DNA of 64,000 nt, taken from contig OZ245838.1 of NCBI GenBank assembly GCA_965228735.1, forward strand, positions 5,472,001 to 5,536,000, in the 5' to 3' direction. The position numbers were made by a program, and so were the translations under genes. How positions within the stretch are numbered: position 1 is the stretch's first letter; the number at the start of each line of letters is the position of its first letter. The notes under the pieces are model-generated. The model was given only the letters and a program-made list of their open reading frames with translations. It had not been told where the DNA came from and did not search any database. Source of the DNA: Planctomycetota bacterium (lineage in GTDB: Bacteria; Planctomycetota; UBA1135; UBA2386). Positions 2,475 to 63,198 of this stretch are shown here, piece by piece.

Positions 2475-5315
2475 ATGTTCCAAGCTACATCACAGGCCGC
2501 CTTCCTCGTCGCCGCCCTCGGCGTTTCGGTCGCAATCAGCGCCCAGGCTCCGACCGCGCCGACGAACGAGTCGTCGTTCGTCTTCCTGCGCTACGAGACG
2601 TTCAACCCGTTGCAGGGTGAGCCGGAGATCCCGGCGACGCTCCAGAGCCGCGAGTCCGACCGGCTCTTCATCGTCCAGTTCCACGGCACGCCCCAGCAGG
2701 CCGATCGCGACGCGATCGCGGCGCTCGGCGGCGAGGTGCACGGTTACCTGCCCGACAACAGCTACGTCGTTCGGATGCCGGGTTCGCGACGGGACGCCGT
2801 GATGGCGCAGACCGGCGTGCGTTGGGTTGGCGCCTATCACCCGGCCTACCGGATCGATCCGGAGATCCTCGAGGTGCTCGCCGACGGTGACCTCGGGGCC
2901 GCGCGCTACAACATGGTCGTTGTCGACAAGCACAACGACAAGCCGGCGCTCGCGGCCGGGATCCAGGGCATCGGCGGGATCGTCGACAACGAGCACACCG
3001 GCAGCCTGCTGTTCACGGCCACGCTGACCGCGGAGCAGCTCGTCCAGACCGCGCACTTCGATCAGGTGCTCTGGATCGACGCTTGGGGCGCTCCCGAGAA
3101 CGATGTCGACAACGCGCGCGCGCAGAGCGGCGCCAACTACGTCGAGACGCAGGGTGGCTACACCGGCAACGGTATCAACCTGCACATCTACGAGGGCATC
3201 CTGCAATCACACCAGGCCTTCTCGGGCCCGGTCGTCAACGTCAACAGCGGCGGCCAATCGACGGGCCACGGCACCAACACGGCCGGCATCGTCTTCGGTG
3301 ATGGCACGGGCAACCCGCAGTTCCGGGGCTATTCGCCGGACTCGGGCAAGTTCTACACGAACTACAGCTCGGTCAGCACGTCGCGTTGGCAGGTCGTCAG
3401 CGACCTGATCAACGTGCACAACGTGAGCCACACGACGGCGTCCTGGGGTGACCCACGCACGCGCAACTACACGTCGGTCTCGGCGGAGGCGGACGACATC
3501 ATCTTCGACCACGACATCGCGTGGACGCAGAGCCAGAGCAACGCCGGCAACCAGGATTCGCGGCCGCAGGCATGGGCGAAGAACATCTTCTCCTGCGGTG
3601 GCTTCGGTCACGGCAACAACGCCAACCCGCAGGACGACTCGTGGCAGGCCGGTAACGGCAGCACCGGGCCGGCGGCCGACGGGCGCATCAAGCCGACGCT
3701 GGCCGCGTACTACGACCAGATCGGTACGACGAGCAGCAACGGTGGCTACACGACGAACTTCGGTGGCACGTCGGGTGCGACGCCGATCATCGCGGGCAAC
3801 AACGCGCTCGCGATCGACATGTTCACGGACGACTCGGCGATGCCGGGATTCGGCATCTTCGGTAACCAGCTCCGCAACCCGGGTGCGTCCAAGCACGTCA
3901 ACCGCCCGCACTTCACGACGCTGAAGTGCCTGCAGGTCGCGAACGCGAGTCAGTACCCGTTCAACGCCACGAGCTCCGACAACCGTCGTGAGCACGTCGG
4001 CTGGGGCTACCCGAGTCTCGAGCGGATGCACGACTACCGCGACAAGACGTTCATCGTGGACGAGACCGACATCCTCACGAACGGCAACACGATGGTCTAC
4101 AGCGTGTTCGTGGCGCCGGGTGAGACCCGCTTCAGCGCGGTGCTGCACTACGCCGAGCCGGGGGCCAACCCGGCCGCGACGATCACGCTGATCAACAACC
4201 TGTCGCTGCGCATCACCGCGCCCGACAGCACGACCTACTGGGGCAACAACGGCCTCGAGCAGGGCAACTGGTCGGTTCCGGGCGGCAGCGAGGACGGGAT
4301 CAACCCGATCGAGTGCGTGTTCGTGCAGAACCCGACGCCGGGTGCCTGGACGATCGAGGTCATCGCGACGTCGATCGTGCAGGACAACCACGTCGAGACC
4401 GCGGCGGTCGATGCCGACTTCGGCCTCGTCGTCACGGGTGGCACGGGCCAGCCGCCGACGAACGCGTTCTTCACGACGTTCGGCGTCGCGTGCGCGGGTT
4501 CGTCGAGCACGACCTCGCCTTGCGTCGAGGTCAACGGCAGTGGCGGCACGCTCACGGGTCTGACGAGCAACAAGGAGTTCGGCATCATCCCGGCGCAGGC
4601 TCAGGCCGACATCGAACGATTCGAGGTCTTCCTGCAGTCGACGGGTGGCACGGTCTCGGTGCCGGCGGCGATCTACCCGCTGCTCAGCCCGACGCCGATC
4701 GCGACGACGACGATCACCGTCGGACCCAACGCGGCGTTCTACGAGGCCGACTTCGGTGCGCCGGTTGCCTTGGCGGGCGCGGTTTTCCTCGGCGTCGATA
4801 CCTCCGCGGGCAACGTGTTCGTGCCGAACCTCGCGACCGGCAACTCCGGTGCCGTGTTCTCGCGTCCGAACGCGACCGGCAGCTGGACGTTCGATCCGTC
4901 GGTGAACCGTCCGTCCTACCGCGTGTACTGCACGGCCGGCACGGTCTTCGACGTGCCGGAGCTCGGCAACACCGGCCTGCCGATTCTCGGCACCAGCTAC
5001 GACATCACGCTGAGCAACGCGCTGCCCTCGACGGCTGCGTTCGCCGTGACGGGCCTGTCGGACCAGACGTTCAACGGTCAGTCGCTGCCGGCGCCGCTGC
5101 CGGGTGCTCCGGGTTGTGACCTGCAGGTCTCGGCCGACGCCACCCGGTTGGTCTTCGTCGACGCGAACGGTGCGGCGAGCGTCTCGACGCCGGTGCCCTC
5201 GAACACCTCGTTCATCGGCGTCGTGCTGTTCCACCAGTGGGCGATCGCCGACCCGACCAAGAACGCGCTCGGCATCGTCGTGTCGAACTCGGGCCGTGCC
5301 TTCCTCGGGAACTGA
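2475..5315 (+). CDS. Secreted S8 subtilisin-like serine peptidase with propeptide, beta-barrel domain and shared C-terminal domain
   Basis: Signal peptide MFQATSQAAFLVAALGVSVAISAQ; HGTNTAG (His); GGTSGATP (Ser); GRIKP motif; NNLSLRITAP...NPIECV beta-barrel. Confidence 0.88.
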   Translation: MFQATSQAAFLVAALGVSVAISAQAPTAPTNESSFVFLRYETFNPLQGEPEIPATLQSRESDRLFIVQFHGTPQQADRDAIAALGGEVHGYLPDNSYVVRMPGSRRDAVMAQTGVRWVGAYHPAYRIDPEILEVLADGDLGAARYNMVVVDKHNDKPALAAGIQGIGGIVDNEHTGSLLFTATLTAEQLVQTAHFDQVLWIDAWGAPENDVDNARAQSGANYVETQGGYTGNGINLHIYEGILQSHQAFSGPVVNVNSGGQSTGHGTNTAGIVFGDGTGNPQFRGYSPDSGKFYTNYSSVSTSRWQVVSDLINVHNVSHTTASWGDPRTRNYTSVSAEADDIIFDHDIAWTQSQSNAGNQDSRPQAWAKNIFSCGGFGHGNNANPQDDSWQAGNGSTGPAADGRIKPTLAAYYDQIGTTSSNGGYTTNFGGTSGATPIIAGNNALAIDMFTDDSAMPGFGIFGNQLRNPGASKHVNRPHFTTLKCLQVANASQYPFNATSSDNRREHVGWGYPSLERMHDYRDKTFIVDETDILTNGNTMVYSVFVAPGETRFSAVLHYAEPGANPAATITLINNLSLRITAPDSTTYWGNNGLEQGNWSVPGGSEDGINPIECVFVQNPTPGAWTIEVIATSIVQDNHVETAAVDADFGLVVTGGTGQPPTNAFFTTFGVACAGSSSTTSPCVEVNGSGGTLTGLTSNKEFGIIPAQAQADIERFEVFLQSTGGTVSVPAAIYPLLSPTPIATTTITVGPNAAFYEADFGAPVALAGAVFLGVDTSAGNVFVPNLATGNSGAVFSRPNATGSWTFDPSVNRPSYRVYCTAGTVFDVPELGNTGLPILGTSYDITLSNALPSTAAFAVTGLSDQTFNGQSLPAPLPGAPGCDLQVSADATRLVFVDANGAASVSTPVPSNTSFIGVVLFHQWAIADPTKNALGIVVSNSGRAFLGN

Positions 5316-5326
5316 CGCTGGCTGAG

Positions 5327-5353
5327 AGCCGGGTGGTCCGAGGCCGCCCGGCT
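5327..5353 (+). terminator. GC-rich hairpin after the S8 gene (possible terminator, no U-tract)
   Basis: AGCCGGGTGGTC-CGA-GGCCGCCCGGCT, 12-bp stem with G-U pairs. Confidence 0.45.
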
Positions 5354-5528: not shown

Positions 5529-6935
5529 ATGCGCATCCTGCACACGGCAGACTGGCACCTGGGACACACGTTGCGCGGGCATTCCCGGCAACGTGAGCAC
5601 GAGCACTTCCTCGGATGGCTCGTCGACACGGTCGTCGAACGCCGGGTGGACGCGGTCCTCATCGCGGGGGACGTGTTCGACAGCGCCAATCCGCCGCCCT
5701 TCGCTTGGCGGCTCTGGTTCGAGTTCCTCGGGGCGCTGCGGCGGCGGCGGCCGGGTGTGCAGGTGGTGGTCATCGCCGGCAATCACGATTCGGCCGCTCG
5801 CCTCGAAGCGCCGCGCGACCTGCTCGCCGCGTTCGATGTTCACGTGTTGGGGCGAGTGCGGCGCGATGCCGACGGTCGCTTGCTCGCGGACCAACTCTTG
5901 ATTCCGCTGGTCGGGGTGGAGGATTCCGAGGCCCGCGCGCTCGTCGTCGCGATTCCGTTCTTGCGGGCGAGCGACGTGGCCGTCGTTCGCGACGTCGAAC
6001 GGGATGGGGCCGAACGGGATGGGGCCGAACGGAAGGGGACCGAGCGGGAGGGCGGAGCGGGCGAGTCGAAGGCCGTTGCGATTCCGCGGGCCGGTGAGTC
6101 TGTCGAGCGACACGAGCTGGGCAGCGCGGACGGCGATGACCCGCTGATCGTCGGCATGCGGGCGCTGCACTCGGAGCTCTTCGAGGCGGCGCGGTCCCGG
6201 CTCGAGTCGGGGCAGGCGCTCGTCGCGATGGCGCATGGCTATCTCGTCGGCGGCATGTTGAGTGAGCTCAGCGAACGCAAGGTGCTCGGTGGCAATCAAC
6301 ATGCACTGCCCGTCGACCTGTTCCCCGACGATTGCGATTACGTGGCGCTCGGCCACCTGCACCGGCCGCAGAAGGTCGCGATGCGCGAGAACGTGCGCTA
6401 CTGCGGTTCGCCGATCCCGTTGTCGATGCCCGAGCGCGAACACCCGCATCACGTGGTCTTCGCGGACCTCGCGGATGGCGCGCTCGAGAAGGTGTGGTCG
6501 TTGCGGGTGCCGCGTCTCGTGCCGTTGCTGCGGATTCCGGAGCGCGGCGAGCTCGAGCCCGAAGCTGCGATGGCCGCCGTCGCCGCGTTGCCGGCGCGGG
6601 ACGCCGAGGACGGCCTTCTCGACGAGGATCTGCGACCGCTGCTCGAGATCGCCGTGCGGGTGCCGGAGCCGATGCCGAGCCTCGCCGAACGCCTCGTGAC
6701 GGCGGCCGCAGACCGCGACGTGCGGCTCGCGCGGATCGAGCTCAAGACGACCGCTGCACCGTCCGGCGGCGAGCCCGATGGTTCCACGTCGCGCGACCTC
6801 GCCACGCTGTTGCCGGAGGAACTGTTCCGGTTGCGCTACGCGCGCGAGCACGAGGGCGCGGTGCCGAAGCGCCTGCTCGCTGCGTTTCGCGAGCTCGTCG
6901 ACGAGGTCGAGAACGGCTCGGAGGTCGCGCCGTGA
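5529..6935 (+). CDS. sbcD: Exonuclease SbcCD subunit D
   Basis: MRILHTADWHLG, AGDVFD, AGNHDS, YVALGHLH, YCGSP; overlaps sbcC (GTGA). Confidence 0.95.
   Translation: MRILHTADWHLGHTLRGHSRQREHEHFLGWLVDTVVERRVDAVLIAGDVFDSANPPPFAWRLWFEFLGALRRRRPGVQVVVIAGNHDSAARLEAPRDLLAAFDVHVLGRVRRDADGRLLADQLLIPLVGVEDSEARALVVAIPFLRASDVAVVRDVERDGAERDGAERKGTEREGGAGESKAVAIPRAGESVERHELGSADGDDPLIVGMRALHSELFEAARSRLESGQALVAMAHGYLVGGMLSELSERKVLGGNQHALPVDLFPDDCDYVALGHLHRPQKVAMRENVRYCGSPIPLSMPEREHPHHVVFADLADGALEKVWSLRVPRLVPLLRIPERGELEPEAAMAAVAALPARDAEDGLLDEDLRPLLEIAVRVPEPMPSLAERLVTAAADRDVRLARIELKTTAAPSGGEPDGSTSRDLATLLPEELFRLRYAREHEGAVPKRLLAAFRELVDEVENGSEVAP
5997..6056 (+). repeat. In-frame 15-bp tandem repeat inside sbcD (ERDGA-ERDGA-ERKGT-EREGG)
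   Basis: GAACGGGATGGGGCC x2 followed by two degenerate copies. Confidence 0.75.
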
Positions 6936-9900
6936 AGATCCTCGCGATCCGCGGTCACAACCTCGCGAGCCTGGCGCGTGAGTTCGAGGTCGACCTCGAA
7001 GCCGGCGATCTCGGTAGCGCTGGCATCTTCGCGATCTGCGGCCCCGTCGGCGCCGGTAAGAGCACCCTGCTCGACGCGCTCTGCCTCGCGTTGTTCGATC
7101 GCACGCCGCGGTTGTCGGGGCGCGGCGGCGTCGCCGTCGCCGAGGCCGAGCTGCCGGCCGCCCACTGGCTGCACAGCCACGATCCGCGCACGCTGCTGAG
7201 ACGTGGCGCCGCATCCGGGTACGCGGAGGTCGATTTCACGGGCCGAGATGGCCAGCGCTATCGATCACGCTGGTCCGTGCGGCGGGCGCGCCGACAGGCC
7301 GATGGCCGGATCCAGCCGCAAGAACTCGTGCTCACCGACATCGACCGGGGTGTCGTCGTCGCGGGTGGCGGCAAGGGCGAGGTGCTCAACGCGATCCGGG
7401 CGCGGCTCGGTCTCGACTTCGCGCAGTTCTGTCGGTCGGTGCTGCTCGCGCAGGGCGACTTCGCGGCGTTCCTCGCGGCGCCGGCGGACGAGCGCGCGAG
7501 TTTGCTCGAGAGCCTCACGGGCGCGGACGTTTACCGCCGCATCTCGCGCGCGGCCCATGAACGCAGTCGGGTCGCGCGACAGCGGGTCGAGCAGCTGCGT
7601 GCGCAGGTCGGGACCCTCGATCTGCTCGATGGCGGCGAACGCGCGCAGCTCGAAGGGCGCGCCGCGGCGTTGACGCAACAGGTCGAGGTCGCCGAGGTCG
7701 CGGTCGAGCTCGCGCAGCAGGTGGTGTCGTGGTATGCCGCGGCTGCGGAGTATCGGCGTGAGGAGCAGGAGCGCACCGCCGATCTGCAGCGAGCGCAGCA
7801 GGACAACCGTGCGGCCGCCAAGGCGCGTGAACGCAACCGGCTGCTCGTGCGCGCGCTGCCGATCGCGCCGCGCGTCGAGGCGCTCACTGCGGCGCAGCAG
7901 GCTGTCGTTGCGGCGGTGCAGCGAGAACAGGAACTCAGCGTCCAGCTCGCCACCGAACGCCAGGTCGCGACCGAGCTCGAGCGCGCAGCGCGCGCGCAGG
8001 TCGAGCGCGTGTTCGGCGTCGAGGCGTCGGCGGCGCCACCGATGCTCGTCGCCGAGTTCGAGCGTTGGCAGCCGACGTTCGCGCGGTGGTTGCGTCGGCA
8101 CGCCGAGTGGCGCGCTTTCGGGGTGTCCACGGCGGCCGCGGCGATGGCCGAGCGCGATGCCGCCGATGCGGCCAAGGCGGCGGCGGCAAACCTGGAAGCG
8201 GCCGAGTTTCGCGAGCTGCCAGCGCGCCGCCAGCGCTTGCTCGCCGAGCGCGAGGCCGTCGCCGCGATCACTGCCGCGGTGCGCGAGTGGCAGGGAGCGC
8301 GCTCGGTCGCGAGCGAGCGCCAGGCCGAGCTCACCCGACTCGAGGGCGAGCGCGAACGGTTGGCTCGAGGGTTCGACGAGCTCGCGCGCGCCGTCGAGGT
8401 CGCGGACCGGGAACTGCACGCCGCGCAGCAGGCTGCCGAGCACGCGCGGATCCGCGGCGATCTCGCCGCGTTCCGCGAACACCTCGAGTCCGGCGAGCCG
8501 TGTCCGCTCTGTGGTTCGATCGAGCATCCCCATCCCGTCGATGCGCCGTCGCCCTCCGGCTCTGGCAATGACAACCCCGAGACGGCGGCCGTCGAGCGGG
8601 CCCAGAAGCAGCGCGAAGCCGCGCGCGACGCGGTGGCCGCGCGTGAGGCCGAGCGGCGGGCGTGTGAGCGCGCGCTTCGGGCGGCGCGCTCGGCCGCGGA
8701 GCGCGCGGCGGATGCCGTTGCCGCGTGTGAGCGCGTGGCGGTCGAGGCTCTCGGTGGGGCGGGCGCGATGGCTCGCGGAGCTCGCGAGTCGGAGCTTCGC
8801 GAGCGGCCAGCGGCCGCGGAGTCCGCCGACGAACCGGAAGCCTCCGTCACGTTGACCGAGACCGAGGCCGTGGCCGTTGCCGAGCGTCGCACGGCCGGGC
8901 TCGCCGATGAAGAACGTGCCGTCGCCGCGTTGGCCGATCGTCACGACGAACTCCGGGCCGCGTACCAGACCGCCGTCGATGCCGAGCGGCGGGCGCAGTC
9001 AGCGGGCACGGCGGCGGCCGCGTTCCTCGAGGCGAACGAGGAGCTCGCGCCAGCGCTCGTTGGAGTCAGCGATCCAGTGCAGCGGCTCGCGGCACTGATC
9101 GAGGATGCCGGCTCACCGGCAGCAGGCGATGCTGCGGTGCGCGATTTGGTCTCTGCGCACGAGCAGAGCGCTCTGGCCGCGACCCGCGCCGCGACCTTGG
9201 AGCGTGAACTCGTCGATGCGGCGGCGGCGCGCCAGGCCCGGGAGGGTGAGTTCGCCGCGGTGAGCGCCGAGGTCGAGGCCGCCGCACGGGCGGCCGAGAT
9301 CACGGTTGGCTCGGTTCGCGAGGCGGCCGCCGTTGGCGCCGCGGCCGTCCTGGCGGAACAGCAAGAACTCGACCGACTGCAGGCCGCCGAAGAACAGGCG
9401 CGGGCCGTCGTGCAGCAATGCGCCCGCGTTCGCGGCCGCCACGAACGCACGAACCGGCCCGCGATCGACGAGGGCGACGCGGCGCAGGCGCTCGAGGATT
9501 CGCGATCCGCGCGGCAGAAGGCGCGCACCGAGCGCGACGACGTGCGCGATCGGTTGAGTGCCGACGACTTCCTTCGGCGGCAACGCGAAGAGCTCGCGCC
9601 GCGTCTCCGCGCCGCCGAACGCGAGTGCGAGACCTGGGTCGCGCTCGACGAGCTCATCGGGCACAGTCGCGGTGATCGGTTCGCGGTGTTCGCCCAGGGG
9701 CTGACCCTCGATCTGCTGCTGCAGGAGGCCAACCGGCGGCTCGCCGATCTCGCGCGCCGCTACCGGCTCGAGAAGAACCGCGGCCGCGACATGGACTTCG
9801 TCGTCGTCGACCTCGATCTCGGCGGTGCTCGCCGCGGCCTGCAGTCGTTGTCCGGTGGCGAGACGTTCCTCGTCTCGCTCGCGCTCGCACTCGCGCTCGC

Positions 9901-10135
9901 GACGCTGGCCGCGCCGCGCTCGCGCGTCGAGACGCTGTTCCTCGACGAGGGGTTCGGCACGCTCGACGCTCAGAACCTCGAGGCCGCACTCGGTGCGCTC
10001 GATTCACTGCAGGCGACGGGCTGCCAGATCGGGATCATCTCGCATGTCGACGGCATCGCTGAGCGCATCGGGACCGTCGTCGACGTGGAGCCCGAGGGCT
10101 CCGGGCAGAGCCGGATTCGCGTTCGGGCGCACTGA
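6932..10135 (+). CDS. sbcC: Exonuclease SbcCD subunit C (Rad50-like ATPase)
   Basis: GTG start; Walker A GPVGAGKST; coiled coils; CPLCGS zinc hook; LSGGE signature; LFLDEGFGTLD Walker B. Confidence 0.95.
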   Translation: MKILAIRGHNLASLAREFEVDLEAGDLGSAGIFAICGPVGAGKSTLLDALCLALFDRTPRLSGRGGVAVAEAELPAAHWLHSHDPRTLLRRGAASGYAEVDFTGRDGQRYRSRWSVRRARRQADGRIQPQELVLTDIDRGVVVAGGGKGEVLNAIRARLGLDFAQFCRSVLLAQGDFAAFLAAPADERASLLESLTGADVYRRISRAAHERSRVARQRVEQLRAQVGTLDLLDGGERAQLEGRAAALTQQVEVAEVAVELAQQVVSWYAAAAEYRREEQERTADLQRAQQDNRAAAKARERNRLLVRALPIAPRVEALTAAQQAVVAAVQREQELSVQLATERQVATELERAARAQVERVFGVEASAAPPMLVAEFERWQPTFARWLRRHAEWRAFGVSTAAAAMAERDAADAAKAAAANLEAAEFRELPARRQRLLAEREAVAAITAAVREWQGARSVASERQAELTRLEGERERLARGFDELARAVEVADRELHAAQQAAEHARIRGDLAAFREHLESGEPCPLCGSIEHPHPVDAPSPSGSGNDNPETAAVERAQKQREAARDAVAAREAERRACERALRAARSAAERAADAVAACERVAVEALGGAGAMARGARESELRERPAAAESADEPEASVTLTETEAVAVAERRTAGLADEERAVAALADRHDELRAAYQTAVDAERRAQSAGTAAAAFLEANEELAPALVGVSDPVQRLAALIEDAGSPAAGDAAVRDLVSAHEQSALAATRAATLERELVDAAAARQAREGEFAAVSAEVEAAARAAEITVGSVREAAAVGAAAVLAEQQELDRLQAAEEQARAVVQQCARVRGRHERTNRPAIDEGDAAQALEDSRSARQKARTERDDVRDRLSADDFLRRQREELAPRLRAAERECETWVALDELIGHSRGDRFAVFAQGLTLDLLLQEANRRLADLARRYRLEKNRGRDMDFVVVDLDLGGARRGLQSLSGGETFLVSLALALALATLAAPRSRVETLFLDEGFGTLDAQNLEAALGALDSLQATGCQIGIISHVDGIAERIGTVVDVEPEGSGQSRIRVRAH

Positions 10136-16570: not shown

Positions 16571-17731
16571 CTAGAAGTACGTCGCCTGAGCGTTCGTCCA
16601 GTTGCCGATCCCGGTGTTGGTGTCCCAGACGATCGCCTGGAACACGAGGTGTTCGCCGAGCATGAACGTCGGAATCGTGTTGGGTACCGCGACGGTGTAC
16701 TCGTACTGCCCGTTCTGCAGCGACGCGACGTCGAGAGAGAGGATCGGTAGGGCAGAGGGCCCGCTGATGTGGCTGTTGCCGATGAGCGCTCCCTGGAACT
16801 GCCACGCGTAGTTCGGCGGCAGGAAGCCGAACTGCGCGCCGAGGAACACCAGTCCGAACGGCGCGAGGTTGTCCGTCACGCGCACGATCAGGCCGTCGCT
16901 ACGCGGGTTGCCGCTGACGTCCGGAAACAGCCCATTCATGCTCAGGTTGGCACCCGGGGCGCCGAGACGATTGCTCGTCGGATCGACGCCGCCCATGTGC
17001 AGGTTGGGAGTCGTGACGAACGGGCCGAGGATGTAGGTCCACTTCGTCGAGAACGAGCCGTTCACGATGCCGGCCCACGTCGGATCCGGAACGCCCGGGG
17101 CGTGATTCTCACCGAGAGTCGCGCCGGTGTTGGCATTGAGCAGGTCGGCGCGAAACAACGAGTGTCCGTCCGTCGCGGGCCACAGCGGATTGGCCGGCAG
17201 GTCGATGCCGACGTAGACGCGATCGGTCTGGGTCGGCCAGACGCTGCCGGCGATCACGCCGCCCTGCATGTTGAAGCCGTCGTACATGATCCAGGTGCCG
17301 CGGTTCTGGTTGCTCGACGGCGGCGTTGTCAGACCCGCGATGCGGGTGATCTCGGCGGTCGGGCTCATGTCTGGACCAGCGACGGGATCGGCTCGGCGGA
17401 TGATCAGATCGTAGGTTTCGATCGTCGACAGCTTCTCGTCCGCGACCCAGTGGTAGATGCCGAACAGCCGCATCGAGTGGTTGTCGTCACCGACGCCGCG
17501 GAAGTGATCGATGTTCAGCTCCATGAGCGCTTCGGCGCGGTTGCTGACATCGGGCCGACCGACGAACGACGTGCACGTGACCGTCTGCCGTTCCGGGTCC
17601 TGGGGGTAGAACACGAACGGGTTGACCTGCGCGCTGGCGGCGGCGCTCAGGACGAGAGCGACGGTCGCCGCAGCGGCGGTGCGAACGGACGAATGGGTGG
17701 AAACGTTGGCGGCGGTGCGAGCGTGCTGCAT
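16571..17731 (-). CDS. Secreted hypothetical protein with a divergent copy of the shared C-terminal domain
   Basis: Signal peptide ...ALVLSAAASAQ; ends LGEHLVFQAIVWDTNTGIGNWTNAQATYF. Confidence 0.8.
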   Translation of the reverse strand: MQHARTAANVSTHSSVRTAAAATVALVLSAAASAQVNPFVFYPQDPERQTVTCTSFVGRPDVSNRAEALMELNIDHFRGVGDDNHSMRLFGIYHWVADEKLSTIETYDLIIRRADPVAGPDMSPTAEITRIAGLTTPPSSNQNRGTWIMYDGFNMQGGVIAGSVWPTQTDRVYVGIDLPANPLWPATDGHSLFRADLLNANTGATLGENHAPGVPDPTWAGIVNGSFSTKWTYILGPFVTTPNLHMGGVDPTSNRLGAPGANLSMNGLFPDVSGNPRSDGLIVRVTDNLAPFGLVFLGAQFGFLPPNYAWQFQGALIGNSHISGPSALPILSLDVASLQNGQYEYTVAVPNTIPTFMLGEHLVFQAIVWDTNTGIGNWTNAQATYF

Positions 17732-17882: not shown

Positions 17883-18914
17883 GTGCCAAATCCTTGCCCA
17901 GGCTCTGGTTCTGCCGGTGTGAGCGCCGGGATAGCCGCGCTCATCGCTGTTCTTTGGCTACCGGCCGAGCTGCCTGCACAGCTCGTTCTCCGGAGTGAGT
18001 CCGGTGGGATCGGGGCCCACCTCGGGGCCCTGAGCGCCGTGGCAGCGAACGGTCAGGACCTGTCGAACGGCGTCCATCTCGAGCCGGTCGGCTTCGGTGG
18101 GGCCGCCCGCTTCGACCTCGCCCCGCGGTCGGATCCGACGGCGGGTGAGTTCGTGCACGCGGTCGTGGCCGACGCCTGGCAGGCGGTCACCAGTCAGAGC
18201 GGCGGCGCGCTGCGTCACGAGTTCGACCTCGCGCGGCCCGTGATGGGTCGAGTCGTCGTCGAGTGGCAGACGGTGACGTCCGGCACCGGTGCGTCCGCGT
18301 TCACGCTCGACCTCGGCGCCGACGGTTCGATCGAGGTCGACGACGGCATGGGCGTCGGCTCCGTCGCGTTGCCCGTCGCTCTGCCGGCCGGGGTGACGCG
18401 GCTCGCCGTCGCGCTGTCGGCGTCTGCTGTCGCCGGCACGATCCAGGGGCCGTGGGGCATTCAGATCGACTACCAGGGTGCGGCGACAGCCGAGCTGCGC
18501 GTGCGGCTCGAGCCGACGCGCGGCACGGTGACCCAGTTCGCTGGCGGCTGCGCCGGCGCCGGCACCCCGGGCCTCGCGATCCCCGCGACCACGATCGTCG
18601 GCAACTTCGACGGCGCGGTGTCGGTTCTCGTCGCGCCGGACGGCGTCCATGACGTGGTGATCCTTGCTCTTGGATTGACGCCGACGAGTTCGTCATTGCC
18701 GGTGCCGCCGTTCTGCGTGCTCGAGGTCGATCCGCTCATCACGTCGTGGCAGCCGCTCGACGGTGTCGCCGGAGCGGCGTTCCATCTCGCCTTGCCGGTC
18801 GGGGCGCCGGCGATCGGGTTCGCGACGCAGGTCGTGGGTCTCGATCTCGGCAGTGGCGCGCCCGGCGGGCTGAGCGCCGCGACGAGTGCGGCGCACTACG
18901 TCGTACTGCCGTAG
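17883..18914 (+). CDS. Secreted hypothetical protein with shared C-terminal domain (start uncertain)
   Basis: Signal-like IAALIAVLWLPAELPAQ; FAGGCAG...LPVPPFCVL...FATQVVGLD. Confidence 0.7.
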   Translation: MPNPCPGSGSAGVSAGIAALIAVLWLPAELPAQLVLRSESGGIGAHLGALSAVAANGQDLSNGVHLEPVGFGGAARFDLAPRSDPTAGEFVHAVVADAWQAVTSQSGGALRHEFDLARPVMGRVVVEWQTVTSGTGASAFTLDLGADGSIEVDDGMGVGSVALPVALPAGVTRLAVALSASAVAGTIQGPWGIQIDYQGAATAELRVRLEPTRGTVTQFAGGCAGAGTPGLAIPATTIVGNFDGAVSVLVAPDGVHDVVILALGLTPTSSSLPVPPFCVLEVDPLITSWQPLDGVAGAAFHLALPVGAPAIGFATQVVGLDLGSGAPGGLSAATSAAHYVVLP

Positions 18915-41462: not shown

Positions 41463-41465
41463 CCC

Positions 41466-44045
41466 GTGGACCGCGTGAAGACCCTGTTCGAGAACGCCGT
41501 CGAGCTGCCGGCGTCCGAGCGAGCGCGGTTCGTCGCCGAATCGTGTGGCGATGACCTCGCGCTTCGACGGCGACTCGAAGGTCTGCTCGCCGCGCACGAC
41601 GAGGCCGGTGACTTCCTGGAGCACCCGACGGGTCTCGTCGACGCTGCCGTTCTGGCCGCGCGGGAGGGCGTCGGGACGCCGAACGAGGCTGCCGGTGACA
41701 GAGTCGATCGCTTCGTGCTCATGACGGAGCTCGGCAGCGGCGGTTTCGGCACGGTTTGGCACGCGCGGCAGGAGGAGCCGGTGACCCGTGAGGTCGCGCT
41801 CAAGGTCCTGCACGCGCGATTGGATCAGCCGAGCCTCGCGGAGGCGTTCTACGCCGAGCGGCAGAATCTCGCGCGCATGCGGCACCCGTCGATCGCCAAG
41901 GTGCTCGATGCGGGCGTCGCGGATGGTCGCCCGTGGATCGCGATGGAGCTCGTCGACGGCGCCCCGATCGTGCGGGCCTGCGAGGCCCGCGCGCTCGACC
42001 TGCGGGCGCGGCTCGGCCTCTTCGTCGAGGTCTGTCGTGCCCTCCAGCACGCGCACGGCAAGGGCATCGTGCACCGCGACCTCAAACCGTCCAACGTGCT
42101 GCTCACGGATGACGCCGGGCGCCTGCGGCCGGTCGTGATCGACTTCGGCATCTCGGGTTCGCTGGACGGTCGGATCGGCCGGCCGGGAGTGGCCGGAACA
42201 CCCGAGTACATGAGTCCGGAGCAGGCCGCCGAAGACGACGACGCCGTCGACGTGCGGACCGATGTCCACGCCCTCGGGGTGCTGCTCTACGAACTCGTCG
42301 CTCGAGCGCGCCCGTTCGTTCGCTCGTCCGCCGACGAGCCTGCCACCGAGATCTTGCGGCGGGTGCGCGAACACGAGCCGGCGCCGCCGAGTCGGGTGAG
42401 GACCGCCATGCCGGGCGTTACCGGCGAGCTCGACGAGATCGTCGGGCAGGCGCTGGAGAAGGACCCGGAGGCCCGCTACCCGACGGCCAACGCGCTCTGT
42501 GAGGACGTCCAGCGTTACCTGCAGCACCGCCCGATCCACGCGCGCGAGGGCCGTCCTGGCTACGTCCTGCGCAAGTTCGTCCAGCGGCACCGGGTCGCGG
42601 TGTTCGCGGTCACGGTGATCGTGCTGACCTCGTTGACGGCTGCCGTCGTCGCGACGCGAGGCTACCTCGCTGCGCGCACGGCGGAGCAGAGCGCACGCCG
42701 CGCTCTCGACGTGCTGGACGAGGTCTGGCTCGCGGCCGATCTCTCGCGGTTCGGCAGCGCGGACTACCCGGTGCGCGAGCTGTTCGCCGATTTCGAGCGC
42801 GCGTTGCCGGGTTTGCTGCCCGACGAGCCGGCGGTCGAGTTTCGCATCCGGCTGTCGATGGCGCGGCTGCAGCGCGCGGCCGGCGTCTTCGATCGGGGGC
42901 TCGCTCACGCCGAGCGCGCGACCGAGCTGGCGCGCGGTATCGAAGGTACGGACTCGCCGTTGCCGGCAGCGCTGCTCGAGCTCGGTCGCATCCAGTACGG
43001 CCGCAACGAGGCGGCGGCTGCCGTCGCGACCGCGGTGGCCGGACTGGCGGCACTCGGAAACCGTGCCGCGCCGGGGCCCCGGGCCGAGTTCGAAGCACTG
43101 CGGGCCGAAGCGTTGCTGCGCAGCGGTGACATCGAGGCGGCGATGGCGGCGGGCGAGCGGGCTGCGGCGCTCTTCGAGGTGACCGGGGATCCCGCTCAGC
43201 GGCCGAACGGCGAGCTGCTCCTCGCGAGCCTGTTCGGCGCCATCGGTCAAGTCGACGTCGCGCTCGAGCACTTGCGGGCGGCGCAGGCGCACTTCGCCGC
43301 GGCCGGGGGCAGCATCGGCGACGAGCTCGTCGCCCGACAGCACGAAGCGATGCTGCTGGCTCGCCGCGGTGACCACGTCGCCGCCGAGGTCGCGATGCGC
43401 GATTGCCATGAGCGGCGGCGCGAGCTCTTCGGTCCCGGTCATCCACTGGTCGCGTCGACCGCGAGCGACCTGGCCTGGCTCCTCCACGAACTGAAGCGCG
43501 ATGCCGAGGCCGCGGACCTGTTGGTTCCCGCGATCGACGACCTGCGCACGCGACTCGGAGAGCGGCACCTGTTCGTCACCGAGGCCATGCAGCGGCTCGG
43601 GGCCGTGCGGGTCGCGCTCGATGAACCGATCGCGGCCGAGGAGCTGCTGCGCGCGGCGATGGACCGCTATCGGACGCTGCCCGCGCATCCGCCGGACGGT
43701 CTGATCGGCTGCATGAACAACCTCGCGGGCCTGCTGTGGCAGCGCGGCGATCGCGAGCAGGCTGCGGATGTCACCGGGCGCGCGCTCGCACTCGCGCGGG
43801 CCGAACTGCCGCGCACGCACTTCGTGCTCTCCGTGACGCTCACCAACCTCGCGTACATGCAGCAGGGGCTGGGCCGCGACGAAGCGGCGGCGACGTTGCT
43901 CGGCGAAGCCCTGACGCTCTCCGAGGAGAACGGCCGTGCCGGGGAAGCGCGGATCCAACGTCGTCGCCTCGTCGCGATGCTGCGCCAGCTCGGTCGCGAT
44001 GCCGAAGCGGATCGGGTGGCGGGGAACGGCGCCGAGGGCCGCTGA
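41466..44045 (+). CDS. Membrane Ser/Thr protein kinase with C-terminal TPRs
   Basis: LGSGGFGTV, VALKV, HRDLKPSN, IDFG, GTPEYMSPEQ; TM helix; TPR repeats. Confidence 0.93.
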   Translation: MDRVKTLFENAVELPASERARFVAESCGDDLALRRRLEGLLAAHDEAGDFLEHPTGLVDAAVLAAREGVGTPNEAAGDRVDRFVLMTELGSGGFGTVWHARQEEPVTREVALKVLHARLDQPSLAEAFYAERQNLARMRHPSIAKVLDAGVADGRPWIAMELVDGAPIVRACEARALDLRARLGLFVEVCRALQHAHGKGIVHRDLKPSNVLLTDDAGRLRPVVIDFGISGSLDGRIGRPGVAGTPEYMSPEQAAEDDDAVDVRTDVHALGVLLYELVARARPFVRSSADEPATEILRRVREHEPAPPSRVRTAMPGVTGELDEIVGQALEKDPEARYPTANALCEDVQRYLQHRPIHAREGRPGYVLRKFVQRHRVAVFAVTVIVLTSLTAAVVATRGYLAARTAEQSARRALDVLDEVWLAADLSRFGSADYPVRELFADFERALPGLLPDEPAVEFRIRLSMARLQRAAGVFDRGLAHAERATELARGIEGTDSPLPAALLELGRIQYGRNEAAAAVATAVAGLAALGNRAAPGPRAEFEALRAEALLRSGDIEAAMAAGERAAALFEVTGDPAQRPNGELLLASLFGAIGQVDVALEHLRAAQAHFAAAGGSIGDELVARQHEAMLLARRGDHVAAEVAMRDCHERRRELFGPGHPLVASTASDLAWLLHELKRDAEAADLLVPAIDDLRTRLGERHLFVTEAMQRLGAVRVALDEPIAAEELLRAAMDRYRTLPAHPPDGLIGCMNNLAGLLWQRGDREQAADVTGRALALARAELPRTHFVLSVTLTNLAYMQQGLGRDEAAATLLGEALTLSEENGRAGEARIQRRRLVAMLRQLGRDAEADRVAGNGAEGR

Positions 44046-56476: not shown

Positions 56477-56483
56477 AGCAAGC

Positions 56484-57852: not shown

Positions 57853-58680
57853 ATGGGACTTCGTGTCAACACGAACATCGCGTCGATCAACGCGCAGCGC
57901 AACACAGCGCTCGTGACGCAGCGGCTGGCCCGCAACTACAACCGGCTCTCTACCGGTCTCCGAATCTCGACCGCCGCGGATGACGCGGCCGGTCTGGCGA
58001 TCTCCGAACGGCTGCGTTCGCAGGTTCGCTCGCTGGCGCAGGCTTCGCGCAACGCCAACGACGGCATCTCGCTCGTGCAGGTCGGTGAGGGCGCGCTCAA
58101 CGAGGTGAGCAACATCCTCGTGCGGCTCCGCGAGCTCACGATCCAATCCGCGAACGGTTCGTCCTCGCCGCAGGACAAGAACACGATCAAGGAAGAGTTC
58201 GACAGCCTCGTCAACGAGGTGAACCGCATCGCGCAGTCGACCGAGTTCAACGGCATCAGGCTGCTGGATGGCTCGGCGTCGACGGTGACGTTCCAGGTCG
58301 GCATCAACACGACGGCGGGCATCGACTCGCTCGACGTGACGCTGACCCCGGCGCTCACGACGTCGCTCGGCCTGAGCACGGTGGACGTCGGTTCGGGCGG
58401 CAACACCAGCTTCGCGATCGGCGCGATCGACGACGCGATCAACCAGGTGTCGGCGTTGCGCGGCAAGTTCGGCTCGCTGCAGAACCGACTGCAGTCGACG
58501 ATCGCCAACCTCGGCGTGACGTCGGAGTCGCTGTCCGCTGCCGAGAGCCGGATCCGCGACGTCGATGTCGCCTACGAGACGGCGCAGCTGACCCGCAACA
58601 ACATCCTGCAGCAGGCCTCGATCTCGATCTTGTCGCAGGCCAACCAGCAGCCCCAGTCGGCGCTGCAGCTGCTGCAGTAA
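57853..58680 (+). CDS. fliC: Flagellin (minimal D0/D1 type, 275 aa)
   Basis: MGLRVNTNIAS, RLSTGLRISTAADDAAGLAISE, QNRL, SRIRDVDVA, ILSQANQQPQSALQLL. Confidence 0.97.
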   Translation: MGLRVNTNIASINAQRNTALVTQRLARNYNRLSTGLRISTAADDAAGLAISERLRSQVRSLAQASRNANDGISLVQVGEGALNEVSNILVRLRELTIQSANGSSSPQDKNTIKEEFDSLVNEVNRIAQSTEFNGIRLLDGSASTVTFQVGINTTAGIDSLDVTLTPALTTSLGLSTVDVGSGGNTSFAIGAIDDAINQVSALRGKFGSLQNRLQSTIANLGVTSESLSAAESRIRDVDVAYETAQLTRNNILQQASISILSQANQQPQSALQLLQ

Positions 58681-59648: not shown

Positions 59649-59657
59649 GTCCGCCCG

Positions 59658-60527
59658 TCAATCGAGCTCGAGACCGCGCTCTTCCTCTTCGGTGATGCCT
59701 TCGCCGAACGAGTTGCCGAGGTAGACCCGGCGGACCTGTTCGTCCGCGACGACGGTCGCCGAGTCGCCCTCGGCGATCACCGTGCCCTGGTTGATGATGT
59801 AGGCGCGGTGGGTGATGCGCAGCGTCGCGATCACGTTGTGCTCCGTGATCAGGATCGCGATGCCCGAGCGGGCGAGCGCCGCGAGGATCTGCTGGATCTC
59901 CTCGACGGTGATCGGGTCGACGCCGGCGAACGGCTCGTCCAGCAGCAGCAGCGACGGGTCCGTCGCCAGCGCGCGCGCGATCTCGAGCCGGCGCTTCTCG
60001 CCGCCCGACATCGTCTCCGCGATGGAGTCGGCGACGTGCATCAGCTGCAGCTCGTGCAGCAGTTCACGGGAACGTTCTTCGCGATCGCGTCGCCGCATTC
60101 CGCGGGCCTCGAGCACTGCCCGCACGTTGTCGAGTGCCGACATCCGCCGGAACACCGACTCCTGCTGCGCGAGGTAGCCGAGCCCCGAGCGGGCGCGGCG
60201 ATACATCGGCTGGCTCGTGACGTCGGAGTCGTTGAGCCAGACGCGCCCGTCATCGGGCGTGACCATGCCGACGACCATGCGGAACGTGGTCGTCTTGCCC
60301 GCGCCGTTCGGCCCGAGCAGGCCCACGATCTCGCCGGCGTGCACCGTGATGCTCACGTGGTCGACGACCCGCCGACCGCGATACGCCTTCACGAGGCCGT
60401 CGGTCCGCAGGATCTGTTCGCCGTCGGGCGCCGCGGTCTGCGCGAGCGCGCGTTCGTCGCCGGTCGTCGCGAGCGCGAGTTCGTCCGCGTCGTCAACAGC
60501 GTCCCGGTTCTTGCGTTTGCCGCTCAC
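59658..60527 (-). CDS. lptB: LPS export ABC transporter ATP-binding protein
   Basis: GPNGAGKTT, PMYRRARSGLGYL, SGGEKRRLEIARAL, LDEPFAGVDP, VRRVYLG. Confidence 0.93.
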   Translation of the reverse strand: MSGKRKNRDAVDDADELALATTGDERALAQTAAPDGEQILRTDGLVKAYRGRRVVDHVSITVHAGEIVGLLGPNGAGKTTTFRMVVGMVTPDDGRVWLNDSDVTSQPMYRRARSGLGYLAQQESVFRRMSALDNVRAVLEARGMRRRDREERSRELLHELQLMHVADSIAETMSGGEKRRLEIARALATDPSLLLLDEPFAGVDPITVEEIQQILAALARSGIAILITEHNVIATLRITHRAYIINQGTVIAEGDSATVVADEQVRRVYLGNSFGEGITEEEERGLELD

Positions 60528-62164
60528 CGCACCGTACCGAAGCGATCGGGCCAGTTCTCGCCGAGCAGCCAGGAGAACGGGCGGACGGGGTAGAACACCA
60601 TGAGCGCGCGGCCCTGGATGTCGGCGCGCGGCACGAACGACACGCCGCGCGTGTTGGTCGTGTCCTCGGCCTGCCATTCCGTGCCGTCGTCGCTCCGGAA
60701 GATGACCTGGCCGCCGTCGGCCCAGCCGTCCGCGGCCTGCCCCTCGAGGCGCAGGATCTCGCCGTACTCGTCGATCATGACGATCGCGTTCTCGGACGGG
60801 ATCGGGATCGGCGTCTCGTCGCGGTCGGGCGGGTTCTGCAGGTTCATCGCGCGCTTGTTGCCGCGCACGCGGCGCGCGCCCGGGGTGTCCGGCGGCACGA
60901 TGCGGCCGTCGTCGGTGACGCCGACCGTGATCGCCGTCCAGCCACGCGAGTCGATCGACTGCAGCGTGTTGTCGCCCATCATGTAGTAGTGGCCCTCGGG
61001 CACCTTGATGAGCTCGGGCGCCTGATAGCGCGTGTAGTGCAGGTCGCGTTCGAGCACGAGGTCACGGATCGTGAGCATGCCCTCGCCGCTGCACGAGATC
61101 TCCGGCACGACCTTCTGGTCGGACGTGAAGCGCCAGTCGTTGAACGAACCCTGCGCGGCGCAGCCCTCGCGGCAGTCGAACTGCTCGCAGTCGATGCGCT
61201 GCACTTCGCTGCCGTCGACCCACGCGATCATCCGGTCGTCGACGTGGGCGAACGCGAGCCGCACGGGGTCGCCGCCGAGCGCGACGTCGAACGCCTCGGA
61301 CTCGAGCAGCACCTTGTCGCTCTTGTCCTGCACGACGAGCCTGCCCTGCTTGCCGGTGACGATCAGCGCGAACGTGAGCTGCTCATGCCCCTTGCGACTG
61401 ACGTGGAACGCGAGCGCCAGCTCGTCGACGTTGCCGCCCGCGAACGTCGCCGCCAATCGCCCGTCGGGCACGATCTCCGGCGGCTGCATCGCGACGGTCT
61501 TCTCGCGGATCGCCTGGGCGACCGCGGTCGGGTAGCCGTCCCAGTCGTGATCGATGAAGCCGGTGAGCTGGCCCTGCTGGGCCTGCTCCACGAAGCGCAG
61601 CAGGTTGGGGCGGTTGCCTCGCAGTTCGGTCGTGAACTCCTCGCCCTGCTCCTCGAAAGCCTTGCTGGGTGAACTGCGCCAGGTCTTGCCGAGCGCTTCG
61701 CTCTCGTTCCGCACGAGTCGCCGCGCCGGGTAGACCTCCTTCCAGAGATCCTCCTGCAGATCGTCGGGCTTGCGCAGCGGAGTGTAGGTGCGCTGGCCGT
61801 CCGCCTCGGAGACCTGGTAGACATTGCCGCCCGCGATGTGCAGCCAGTCGCCCGGCATGCCGACGATGCGCTTGACGTAGTTCTGGTTCTTCTGCAGCGG
61901 GTACTTGAAGACGGTGATGTCCCAGCGCTGCGGCTCGCGGAACGTCTGCAGCAGCTTGTTCACGAGGATGCGGTCGAACACCTTCGACGCCTGATCGCCC
62001 ATGAGCGTCGGCTGCATCGACGACGTCGGGATCTGGTACGCCTCGATGCAGAACCACTTGAGCAGCACGGCCGCGAGGATCGCGACGCCGAACGCTTCGA
62101 GGTTGGTGCGGATCGGCCCCATGGTCGGGACCTTCTTCTTCTTGTCGCCGGAGTTCGCAGCCAT
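60524..62164 (-). CDS. lepB: Signal peptidase I with large insertions
   Basis: IPTSSMQPTL (Ser), YVKRIVG (Lys), MMGDNTLQSIDSR, IQGRA. Confidence 0.92.
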   Translation of the reverse strand: MAANSGDKKKKVPTMGPIRTNLEAFGVAILAAVLLKWFCIEAYQIPTSSMQPTLMGDQASKVFDRILVNKLLQTFREPQRWDITVFKYPLQKNQNYVKRIVGMPGDWLHIAGGNVYQVSEADGQRTYTPLRKPDDLQEDLWKEVYPARRLVRNESEALGKTWRSSPSKAFEEQGEEFTTELRGNRPNLLRFVEQAQQGQLTGFIDHDWDGYPTAVAQAIREKTVAMQPPEIVPDGRLAATFAGGNVDELALAFHVSRKGHEQLTFALIVTGKQGRLVVQDKSDKVLLESEAFDVALGGDPVRLAFAHVDDRMIAWVDGSEVQRIDCEQFDCREGCAAQGSFNDWRFTSDQKVVPEISCSGEGMLTIRDLVLERDLHYTRYQAPELIKVPEGHYYMMGDNTLQSIDSRGWTAITVGVTDDGRIVPPDTPGARRVRGNKRAMNLQNPPDRDETPIPIPSENAIVMIDEYGEILRLEGQAADGWADGGQVIFRSDDGTEWQAEDTTNTRGVSFVPRADIQGRALMVFYPVRPFSWLLGENWPDRFGTVR

Positions 62165-62253
62165 GTCGGTGCGCGCAGGTTAGCGGCTCGCCACGGCCGG
62201 AAGGAAGGGGCGGCCGGGGCGGGGAGGCGGACTGGTCGAGACTCCAGCCGACA

Positions 62254-63198
62254 TCAGCCCCCGATCACCGCCCGGCCGGCGTTGCTCGCCGTGAGGCCGA
62301 GCGTGTTCGCAGCCGGATCGAGGCAGTAGTACTGATTCACGAGCTGCAGGCCGACGAGGCCGGGGTTGGCGGGGAACGTGGCCGGCACGACCGCCGTGCC
62401 GCTCGGGCCGACGGTCGTGAACGTGTTGACGAGTTGTTCGGCGAGGACCTGGCAGCCCGGTGCACCGAAGCCGCCGAGGTCGAACGGCAGGGTTTGTTGC
62501 CCGGACATCGAATCCGAGAAGCCGAACGTCAGGATCGCGAGCGCGCCGCTCGGCACGTCGCTGAGGTGCAGGTCGAACGAGCTGCCCGTGAGCGGCATGC
62601 CCGACCAGCACAGCCGCGGGATGCCGGCCGAGCCGACGCAGCCCTGGCCGTAGATCTCGTAGTGGCCGGCCGCGCCGGTCCAGATGCGGAACTTCCATTG
62701 CCGCGACGAGAACGGTCCGTTCCAGCTCGCGCCGCCGTTGAAGCTGCCGCGATACTCCTGCGCGCCCGGGCCGATGTTCGCGGCCGAAGCCTGCGCGCCG
62801 TTCTGCGGTCCCCACACGACCCAGAACGTCTGCCCCTGCAGGAGAACGACGGGCGTCGTCAGCAGCGCGCCCTGCCAGCCGTTGCGCGTGCACATCTGCC
62901 AGCTGCCGTCGCCGAGCGACGTGCTGGGCGCGTTCGCCGCGGCGTCGTGGTCCCAGAGCGCGATCGTGTTGAGGCCGGTCCGTTCGCCCGTGAAGATCTC
63001 GACGCGCGTCGCGACACCCGTGACCGGCATCTGCGTCTTGATCGCGAACAGCAGGTTGGGGCCGCCCATGCTCACGTTGTCGGCGTAGGTCGGGTTGTCG
63101 AACGCCGAGTGGATCGTGACCACCTGGGCCGTTGCGAGTTCGATCGGCGCGAGGGCGGCGCTGGCGAAGATGGAGAACGTGGCGATCGTGCGGAGCAT
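62254..63198 (-). CDS. Secreted protein with shared C-terminal domain
   Basis: Signal peptide ...LATAQ; YGQGCVG..LPFDLGGFGAPGC..LVGLQLVNQYYCLDPAANTLGLTASNAGRAVIGG. Confidence 0.82.
   Translation of the reverse strand: MLRTIATFSIFASAALAPIELATAQVVTIHSAFDNPTYADNVSMGGPNLLFAIKTQMPVTGVATRVEIFTGERTGLNTIALWDHDAAANAPSTSLGDGSWQMCTRNGWQGALLTTPVVLLQGQTFWVVWGPQNGAQASAANIGPGAQEYRGSFNGGASWNGPFSSRQWKFRIWTGAAGHYEIYGQGCVGSAGIPRLCWSGMPLTGSSFDLHLSDVPSGALAILTFGFSDSMSGQQTLPFDLGGFGAPGCQVLAEQLVNTFTTVGPSGTAVVPATFPANPGLVGLQLVNQYYCLDPAANTLGLTASNAGRAVIGG

Follow-up and report, generated by a model that had tools for sequence, protein, structure and literature searches.

The window, that is, the whole 64-kb stretch of planctomycete DNA analyzed here, contains seven ORFs, named below by their start coordinates, for which a first-pass annotation had claimed a common C-terminal domain behind differing N-terminal parts. 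All seven lie where they had been placed (Table 1), and the four motifs quoted for the domain were all found in the sequence. Each product starts with a hydrophobic leader with an A|Q end (7/7), as had been proposed; the cleavage sites in the window were assigned by motif and by eye.

Table 1. Tail-bearing proteins of the window
Feature	Coordinates	Strand	Details
S8 (subtilase) peptidase, 946 aa	2475..5315	+	signal peptide 2475-2543, then Gln; PF00082 E 4e-7
Tail of S8 protein	4467..5312	+	profile match E 4e-28, envelope 4887-5312
Exported protein, 386 aa	16571..17731	-	signal peptide 17630-17731; weak Cys-less tail ~16574-16963
Exported protein, 343 aa, GTG start	17883..18914	+	signal peptide 17883-17978; divergent tail 18498-18908, both Cys present, E 3.6e-7
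Signal peptide and domain alone, 179 aa	35602..36141	-	signal peptide 36073-36141; domain 35605-36072, E 3.9e-13
Kelch beta-propeller protein, 464 aa	36305..37699	+	signal peptide 36305-36385; tail 37274-37696, E 1e-29
Exported protein, 373 aa	39583..40704	+	signal peptide 39583-39660; Cys-less tail within 40117-40605, E 2e-16
Protein with DUF4082-like N-terminal domain, 314 aa	62254..63198	-	signal peptide 63127-63198; tail 62257-62688, E 2e-32

The common domain, hereafter the tail, was clear in five of the proteins (2475, 62254, 36305, 35602 and 39583), which were interlinked in pairwise phmmer searches (best links E 1e-21 to 8e-11). The copies in 16571 and 17883, already described as more divergent, gave no pairwise phmmer alignment (E >= 0.06). 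With profiles trained on the genome, 17883 reached 31-36 bits and 16571 reached 16-22 bits, compared with at most 11.9 bits for shuffled sequences (1000 per protein). We regard 17883 as divergent and 16571 as weak; the latter falls under the genome-wide profile threshold and aligns over its full length to a paralog above it (E 4e-78). Two details of the annotation had to be corrected: the domain spans about 135-145 aa instead of 110-130 aa once its first strand is included, and the Cys pair thought to be conserved in all seven is complete in only four (2475, 17883, 36305 and 62254). In the S8 protein, a module of ~150 aa is inserted between the first strand (aa 665-673, with Cys673; positions 4467-4493) and the remainder of the tail (aa 828-946; main body at 4956-5312), and in 39583 the domain is followed by an extension of ~35-40 aa.

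Across the planctomycete genome, which is 93% complete, the tail was detected in 344 of 5415 called genes and in none of the reversed decoys. The window, with six matches compared with 3.1 expected per 64 kb, is a sample of this genome-wide family and not a dedicated locus. The tail is almost always present in a single copy per protein, and the suggested C-terminal bias was evident, as 316/344 copies end within 10 aa of the protein end. Another 17 of the 344 lie >30 aa from the C-terminus, many of them close to the N-terminus, and 14 tagged proteins have fewer than 200 mature residues. In a genome from a second order, 28 of 32 copies are C-terminal. Of the Planctomycetota genomes searched, 57 of 301 encode the tail, which was also found in 22,833 protein clusters; its proposed restriction to a lineage is supported. 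Members are only about 30% identical to one another. The cargoes are indeed unrelated: 312 of them form 99 clusters. Peptidases, oxidases, cytochrome c peroxidases and propellers are among the cargoes, which have no common substrate.

The tail is linked to export. A hydrophobic leader, scored by a criterion blind to Gln, was found in 254/344 tagged proteins compared with 1275/4452 other genes, consistent with the proposed co-occurrence with signal peptides, and 337 of the 344 tagged proteins have no further membrane helix. By a loose heuristic, a Gln motif follows the leader in 243 of the 254 tagged proteins and in 560 of the 1275 other leader-bearing genes. Because many exported proteins without the tail also have Gln at this position, the residue does not belong to the tail system. 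Its frequency suggests that the Q-rule may extend beyond the groups examined in the accessible portion of PMC5837995. The first-pass annotation had read the Gln as a sign of pyroglutamate formation, which is plausible since the genome encodes a type I/M28 protein that resembles glutaminyl cyclases of known structure (E 4e-19), but it would not be specific to the tail. No type II (plant-like) glutaminyl cyclase was found in the genome, while the positive control was matched. No cleavage motif was found ahead of the domain, nor any conserved linker motif in 216 linkers.

The tail, modeled on the copy of 62254, is predicted to fold into an eight-stranded, all-beta Ig-like sandwich. This agrees with the disulfide-bonded sandwich proposed earlier, as C17 and C79 are co-conserved and likely form the bond. 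Its loops contain conserved Pro, Gly and hydrophobic residues, and Gln119 is near-invariant (95%). Searches of Pfam and NCBIfam returned no family match, and no Pfam family was hit by more than one of 63 members at E <= 1. A PDB sequence search gave no match (best E 0.21), and Foldseek gave none at E <= 0.001 with the model; the NPC2/GM2AP lipid-binding folds in its top rows (TM 0.3-0.35) were not credited. The 30 nearest clusters in the Atlas have no common Pfam family. The best VIA structural match (Z 8.4, rmsd 3.2 over 108 residues) belongs to a set of generic Ig, FN3 and macroglobulin (MG) domains. MG domains of TEP1, A2M and complement C5 score Z 8.3-8.4 (rmsd 3.2-3.4 over 106-109 residues), but they are 10-17% identical to the tail and barely exceed unrelated Ig rows (Z 7-7.9). 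On this model, the resemblance would reflect a common fold, with no sign of shared function. Within the scope of these searches, no characterized catalytic or carbohydrate-binding family was matched.

Among homologs of the same cargo, the tail is exchanged for other end modules. The top 120 homologs of the window S8 peptidase end in the tail domain (99), in a sibling tail (19) or in neither (2, at least one of them labeled partial). For the cargo of a TonB operon, the top 120 homologs carry the tail domain (39), the sibling (40), a dockerin-like module (24, one of which was confirmed as NF041540) or others (17). The sibling, which we call the QxWxRD tail (e.g. Poly30_42810 of Saltatorellus ferox), sits on the same cargoes and matched no NCBIfam entry. 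It aligned to the core tail alignment (hhalign 91%, E 1e-6, 122 columns), although the probability was only 2% with a broader, noisier alignment; the strand order is similar in a moderate-confidence model, while the Cys spacing differs and there are extra loops. By these alignments, the two are likely homologous.

Tagged cargoes also differ in composition. The median K+R+E content was 8.2% in 289 tagged cargoes and 17.5% in 356 untagged signal-peptide proteins. No more than 37 of the 356 had values as low as those of the cargoes, and some 20 of these carry a divergent tail copy at the end as judged by eye. We also compared the cargoes with untagged paralogs of the same fold in 37 rows, of which 6 were dropped because the paralog is probably a divergent carrier. 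In 26 of the remaining 31 rows, which are not independent, the aligned region was richer in K+R+E in the untagged protein. Low K/R/E speaks to protein location only indirectly and is uncalibrated on this material. These results suggest that tagged cargoes have a destination other than that of untagged exported proteins. Nearly all exported proteins of this composition are tagged, which is the pattern expected of an export signal. The tail swap and the composition tests together support a sorting or anchoring role for the domain.

The tail works like the CTD of the type IX secretion system (T9SS) or like a dockerin, yet it is neither. The type A CTD of Bacteroidota (Por_Secre_tail, PF18962/TIGR04183) is likewise a C-terminal Ig-like sandwich on varied, unrelated Sec-exported proteins, and T9SS hosts share with the planctomycete the Gln after the signal peptide. 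However, the tail is about twice as long (~135-145 aa), is predicted to have eight strands and contains a Cys pair, compared with ~65-73 aa and seven strands in the CTD as given in the accessible portion of PMC4804311, which also describes PorU cleavage as sequence-independent. None of the 63 tail members matched the CTD models of Pfam or NCBIfam at E <= 1. Unlike the CTD, the tail also occurs at the N-terminus and alone, its carriers do not conserve a C25 peptidase, and no PorV was found. Neither a T9SS CTD nor a cohesin is among the 50 VIA matches listed, which excludes neither. Dockerins of other Planctomycetota (type I, PF00404; GC-type, NF041540) take the place of the tail at the end of the same cargo family, but the tail is modeled as all-beta, lacks calcium-loop repeats and has no profile similarity to them (hhalign 0.05%). 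Classically, dockerins serve for docking and do not signal export. The analogy with PEP-CTERM, which in PVC bacteria likewise tags the ends of many surface proteins, did not hold: the tail is folded and soluble, with no PEP motif, membrane anchor or basic tail, and two or more K/R within the last 10 aa were counted in 47 of 316 C-terminal tails. The genome encodes one exosortase, located in a polysaccharide locus, and three PEP-CTERM-like proteins as its own substrates.

The phylogenetic profiling proposed earlier yielded no machinery gene: among the candidates profiled over carriers and non-carriers, no receptor or translocon was co-distributed with the tail alone. Twin TPR-secretins were present in 24/24 carriers but matched in 22/25 non-carriers too, and a giant pseudopilin-like protein occurred in 23/24 and 10/25, respectively. 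The C25 peptidase was rejected as a sortase (1/24 carriers), as was an uncatalogued 739-aa protein as machinery (15/24 carriers, 5/25 non-carriers). Reciprocal best hits between genome G000 and 2.31 Mb of genome G177 (925 pairs) revealed no large unknown barrel, with 51 G177 proteins run against Pfam after a heuristic filter. In the 93% complete genome, PorV was absent while its positive control was matched; SprA, SprA_N, GldM and TIGR04183 also gave 0 matches, as did their positive controls.

We consider the chances about even that the tail is a folded address tag that routes several hundred signal-peptide proteins past the outer membrane, either to the surface or into the medium. Judging from the encoded signal peptides, these proteins would be exported by Sec and cut by signal peptidase I before the Gln, which the M28-type enzyme may cyclize irrespective of the tail. 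The tail would fold in the periplasm with a putative C17-C79 disulfide and could be read there by a shared receptor. Passage through an outer-membrane pore would follow, most likely that of a secretin-based type II-like machine, which we favor in view of the seven secretins of the genome and the lack of any detected T9SS part. Finally, the proteins would either be released or stay on the surface; the occurrence of N-terminal and stand-alone copies makes an obligatory cleavage improbable. The secretion or surface-display tag of the first-pass annotation is partly supported. Copies away from the C-terminus are unlike a strictly terminal, cleaved signal. These copies and the 14 short proteins fit a binding handle equally well. 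A more far-reaching version is unlikely: a deep Planctomycetota branch, probably overlapping the proposed Saltatorellota, would have its own secretion system, in which a proton-powered machine reads the tail, while other lineages would supply the same machine with dockerins or other tails. The machine would combine the giant pseudopilin-like protein as its tip with an ExbB-ExbD-ExbD motor and the twin TPR-secretins, making it a functional twin of type IX built from type II/IV parts.

A possible but doubtful alternative, which may hold together with the address tag, is that the tail serves only for docking: the fold of each cargo would signal its own passage across the outer membrane, and the tail would bind non-covalently to a scaffold protein, glycan or lipid at the surface, much as dockerin binds cohesin. 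That the tail takes the dockerin slot on the same cargo, occurs at either protein end and alone, and conserves its loops and Gln119 fits such binding. Dockerin expansions (12 or more matches) in 4/40 non-carriers and 0/40 carriers point weakly the same way; related genomes are not independent. However, neither dockerin nor cohesin was found in the genome, and the control for cohesin (PF00963) was matched in 2 genomes. The candidate scaffolds, giant Big_5 (Ig-like) lipoproteins, which evolve fast and were sought by single-protein queries, were detected in no non-carrier but in only 12/40 and 3/24 carriers, with none in 2.31 Mb of G177. An optional anchor should moreover leave many released proteins untagged, yet exported proteins that resemble the cargoes in composition are seldom without the tail.

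Ig-type folds frequently act as spacers or binding modules, and the generic Ig, FN3 and MG domains nearest to the tail would suit an accessory periplasmic module (carbohydrate-binding, peptidoglycan-binding or stabilizing) spread by domain shuffling with no sorting role. We find this rather improbable, as the tail is single and terminal in >90% of cases, whereas spacer or carbohydrate modules stand in tandem, no Pfam family is hit by more than one of 63 members at E <= 1, the cargoes share no substrate, and the K+R+E split from untagged exported paralogs would be left unexplained. Still less credible is a coat in which tails bind one another in a mosaic, S-layer-like lattice displaying hundreds of cargoes. 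The very high gene number, the stand-alone copies and a weak, non-significant Foldseek match to the HPI S-layer of Deinococcus (E 0.01, TM 0.40) are in its favor; the low identity among members speaks against a common lattice interface, and the Saltatorellota preprint contains 0 occurrences of S-layer.

The tail bears on the route by which hundreds of planctomycete enzymes and binding proteins cross the outer membrane. Carried by ~6% of genes and >22,000 sequence clusters yet absent from Pfam and NCBIfam, it would define a surface and secreted proteome by sequence across a whole uncultured branch. In light of the tail swap, the dockerins and other terminal motifs found in neighboring lineages seem to fill the same role, and a dedicated secretion system, if real, would account for the orphan dockerins of planctomycetes as well. 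In the cultured Saltatorellus ferox Poly30, the ortholog of the window S8 peptidase ends in the sibling tail, so that proteomics and pull-downs are feasible now.

All seven open reading frames (ORFs) singled out by the first-pass annotation, which we name by start coordinate, translated cleanly, with three encoded on the minus strand, and its four quoted tail motifs were exact in the translations. Its signal peptides ending in AQ were also recovered, as judged by motif, with a hydrophobic leader and A|Q in 7/7. The claim of one C-terminal domain common to all seven (the tail domain, ~135 aa) had to be graded. In an all-against-all phmmer comparison of the tails, the best links (E 1e-21 to 8e-11) joined five proteins, and the tails of 16571 and 17883 had no link to the others. 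Against genome-trained profiles, 17883 scored 31-36 bits and 16571 16-22 bits, compared with a maximum of 11.9 bits for 1000 shuffles of each, and the full length of 16571 aligned with a paralog that itself exceeds the genome-wide threshold. Thus, five proteins are clear members, 17883 is a divergent one, and 16571 is only a weak one. The conserved cysteine pair is complete in 4/7. A module inserted after the first strand splits the domain in the S8 peptidase 2475, 39583 has a short extension beyond it, and 35602 consists of the tail domain alone.

The genome containing the window is a single 7.19 Mb contig, 93% complete. An unfiltered HMM search (E < 0.01) of our own gene calls (5415 genes) found the tail domain in 344 genes and in 0 reversed decoys; one gene only had a double copy. 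The anticipated C-terminal bias was evident, with the domain ending within 10 aa of the C-terminus in 316/344 copies and within 30 aa in 327/344. So was the co-occurrence with signal peptides: a Gln-blind test found a leader in 254/344 tagged genes versus 1275/4452 other genes, and 337/344 tagged proteins lacked a further membrane helix. The remaining parts, or cargoes, are as unrelated as first described, forming 99 clusters among 312. In the 2.31 Mb searched of the genome G177, which belongs to another order, the domain was matched by 32 ORFs, 28/32 terminally. Across Planctomycetota it was matched in 57/301 genomes, with up to 13 candidates scored per genome and a blank counted as 'not found', and its distribution was mostly all-or-none per family (e.g. 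7/7, 6/6 and 5/5 versus 0/15, 0/15 and 0/10). The profile matched 22,833 clusters at 50% identity; source labels of homologs named Planctomycetota, and the named hits and Atlas clusters came mostly from this phylum.

The tail domain is a real, very large and uncatalogued family. Pfam, NCBIfam and the PDB sequences contained no match to it, and a common family was absent from all of the best 30 nearest Atlas clusters. The listings of full-text literature searches, with few subscription journals covered, showed no description of it, and passages of PMC11131199 mention no such domain. An AlphaFold2 model from a 63-row alignment (pLDDT 96.6) has eight strands. Foldseek returned no match to this model at E <= 0.001, and in a wide structural search macroglobulin domains (Z 8.3-8.4) scored slightly higher than generic Ig and FN3 entries; the predicted fold is therefore Ig-like and does not reveal the function. 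Conservation is strongest at Gly and Pro turns, Gln119, Ser135/Asn136 and two cysteines. Among 212 copies, 173 have both cysteines, 21 neither and 18 one, a co-occurrence consistent with a disulfide.

Tagged cargoes have a median of 0.5% Lys and 8.2% K+R+E (n=289), versus 2.5% and 17.5% in untagged proteins with a signal peptide plus Gln (n=356), which resemble leaderless soluble proteins. The cargo range takes in only 37 of these 356, about 20 of which end, by eye, in divergent copies. In a paralog comparison, 37 untagged proteins were aligned to tagged cargoes; after exclusion of 6 that are probably divergent carriers, the same fold was richer in K+R+E in 26/31 untagged paralogs and not in 5/31. 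Low K/R/E values also occur in G177 (59% GC). We read the composition as two exported populations with different destinations, of which the low-charge one is presumably extracellular.

Gln at +1 occurs across the genome, in 243/254 tagged and 560/1275 other leader-bearing genes. Because of this and a glutaminyl-cyclase-like gene (see table), the pyroglutamate proposed for the mature N-terminus is plausible, as a feature separate from the tail system. The gene and the Gln enrichment after signal peptides suggest a Q-rule in this lineage; PMC5837995 describes that rule as Bacteroidetes-specific and without control over T9SS.

The tagged protein at the head of a TonB-receptor operon is conserved between this genome and G177, and its homologs bear at least four kinds of tail. 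Among its best 120 homologs, scored by cargo only, 39 had the tail domain, 40 a related 'QxWxRD' terminal domain (sibling tail), 24 a dockerin-like tail and 17 others. The dockerin-like tails were classed by motif, one being confirmed as NF041540, and precomputed PF00404 annotations were present on ten of the 120. The best 120 homologs of the S8 cargo comprised 99 with the tail domain, 19 with the sibling tail, including Poly30_42810 of Saltatorellus ferox, and 2 with neither. The sibling tail is probably homologous to the tail domain: hhalign gave 91% (E 1e-6, 122 columns) against the core alignment and 0.1% for a reversed control, but only 2% against the broad alignment. Its model, of moderate confidence, has a similar strand order with a disordered linker in front, and 33/55 weak matches of its profile in the genome are tagged genes. 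Since homologs of one cargo end in different tails, the tail is an exchangeable module whose slot is filled elsewhere by known or suspected anchoring tags. An ORF at C1:1749660-1750790 of the genome matches the sibling profile (E 1.7e-7), so both types can coexist.

We favor the reading that the tail domain would act as a folded signal that takes proteins across the outer membrane, since almost every exported protein of the distinct composition bears it, and give this about an even chance. Swaps with dockerin and the N-terminal and stand-alone copies speak for a docking handle only, which is possible but clearly less probable; the two roles are not exclusive. That it is a generic accessory domain is unlikely, and a self-assembling coat more unlikely still. 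In line with the proposed analogy, its mode of action would resemble that of a T9SS CTD or dockerin, but the domain belongs to neither. It is eight-stranded in the model, whereas PMC4804311 gives the T9SS CTD seven strands, a signal within the last 22 residues and cleavage by PorU.

No machinery for the tail domain was identified among the candidates examined. PorV, dockerin and cohesin were absent from the genome (93% complete) with controls working; SprA, GldM and a T9SS tail model gave 0 matches, but control searches were equally silent. The genome encodes seven secretins. A block of twin TPR-secretins plus an ExbB-ExbD-ExbD motor matched in 24/24 carriers of the tail domain and 22/25 non-carriers at the threshold used, the block giving two matches in each of the 24 carrier genomes and also occurring in many non-carriers; its two bracketed proteins resemble periplasmic scaffolds, with TPR matches. 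A giant pseudopilin-like protein without a Pfam match was found in 23/24 carriers versus 10/25 non-carriers; its distribution tracks the twin secretins, and in several genomes it shares a contig with them. Both are compatible candidates, not ones linked to the tail domain. A C25 peptidase, present in 1/24 carriers, and a 739-aa uncatalogued protein were rejected. For giant Ig-like lipoproteins, a further candidate, close homologs were found mostly inside the order.

Coordinates of neighboring genes and candidate loci (G000, genome containing the window; C1 and L numbers, contig or locus handles)
Feature	Location	Strand	Remark
Signal peptidase I-like gene	window 60524-62164	-	named by eye
LptB-like ABC ATPase gene	window 59658-60527	-	named by eye
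M28-family glutaminyl-cyclase-like protein	G000:C1:2062283-2063359 (L071)		similar to solved mammalian-type glutaminyl cyclases
Two secretins (one with Pfam TPR match)	G000:C1:6769699-6784599 (L072, L073)		bracket ExbB-ExbD-ExbD and two scaffold-like proteins
Pilus or type II-like cluster	G000:C1:1397583-1412826; L111:10858-16008		has 1,735-aa pseudopilin-type protein
Giant Ig-like lipoprotein cluster, 1,100-1,350 aa	G000:C1:2689303-2703361 (L074)		low K/R/E
TonB-dependent receptor operon (TPR, MotA/ExbB, DUF3450, receptor)	G000:C1:4007090-4019012; L155:7461-18913		syntenic in two orders

A tagged ORF lies within the twin-secretin block, and a MamK/MreB-like actin gene adjoins. Saltatorellota isolates have a MamK-like actin, and their genetics is not yet developed (10.1101/817700); 'secret' and 'signal peptide' do not occur in the abstract and passages of that source. 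In the window, the signal peptidase I-like and LptB-like genes are directly downstream of tagged 62254-63198 on the same strand, and a pair of genes for an ECF sigma factor and a Ser/Thr kinase (identified by eye; 40857-44045, plus strand) directly follows tagged 39583-40704. The window also contains a flagellin-like gene (57853-58680) and an SbcD/SbcC-like pair (5529-10135).
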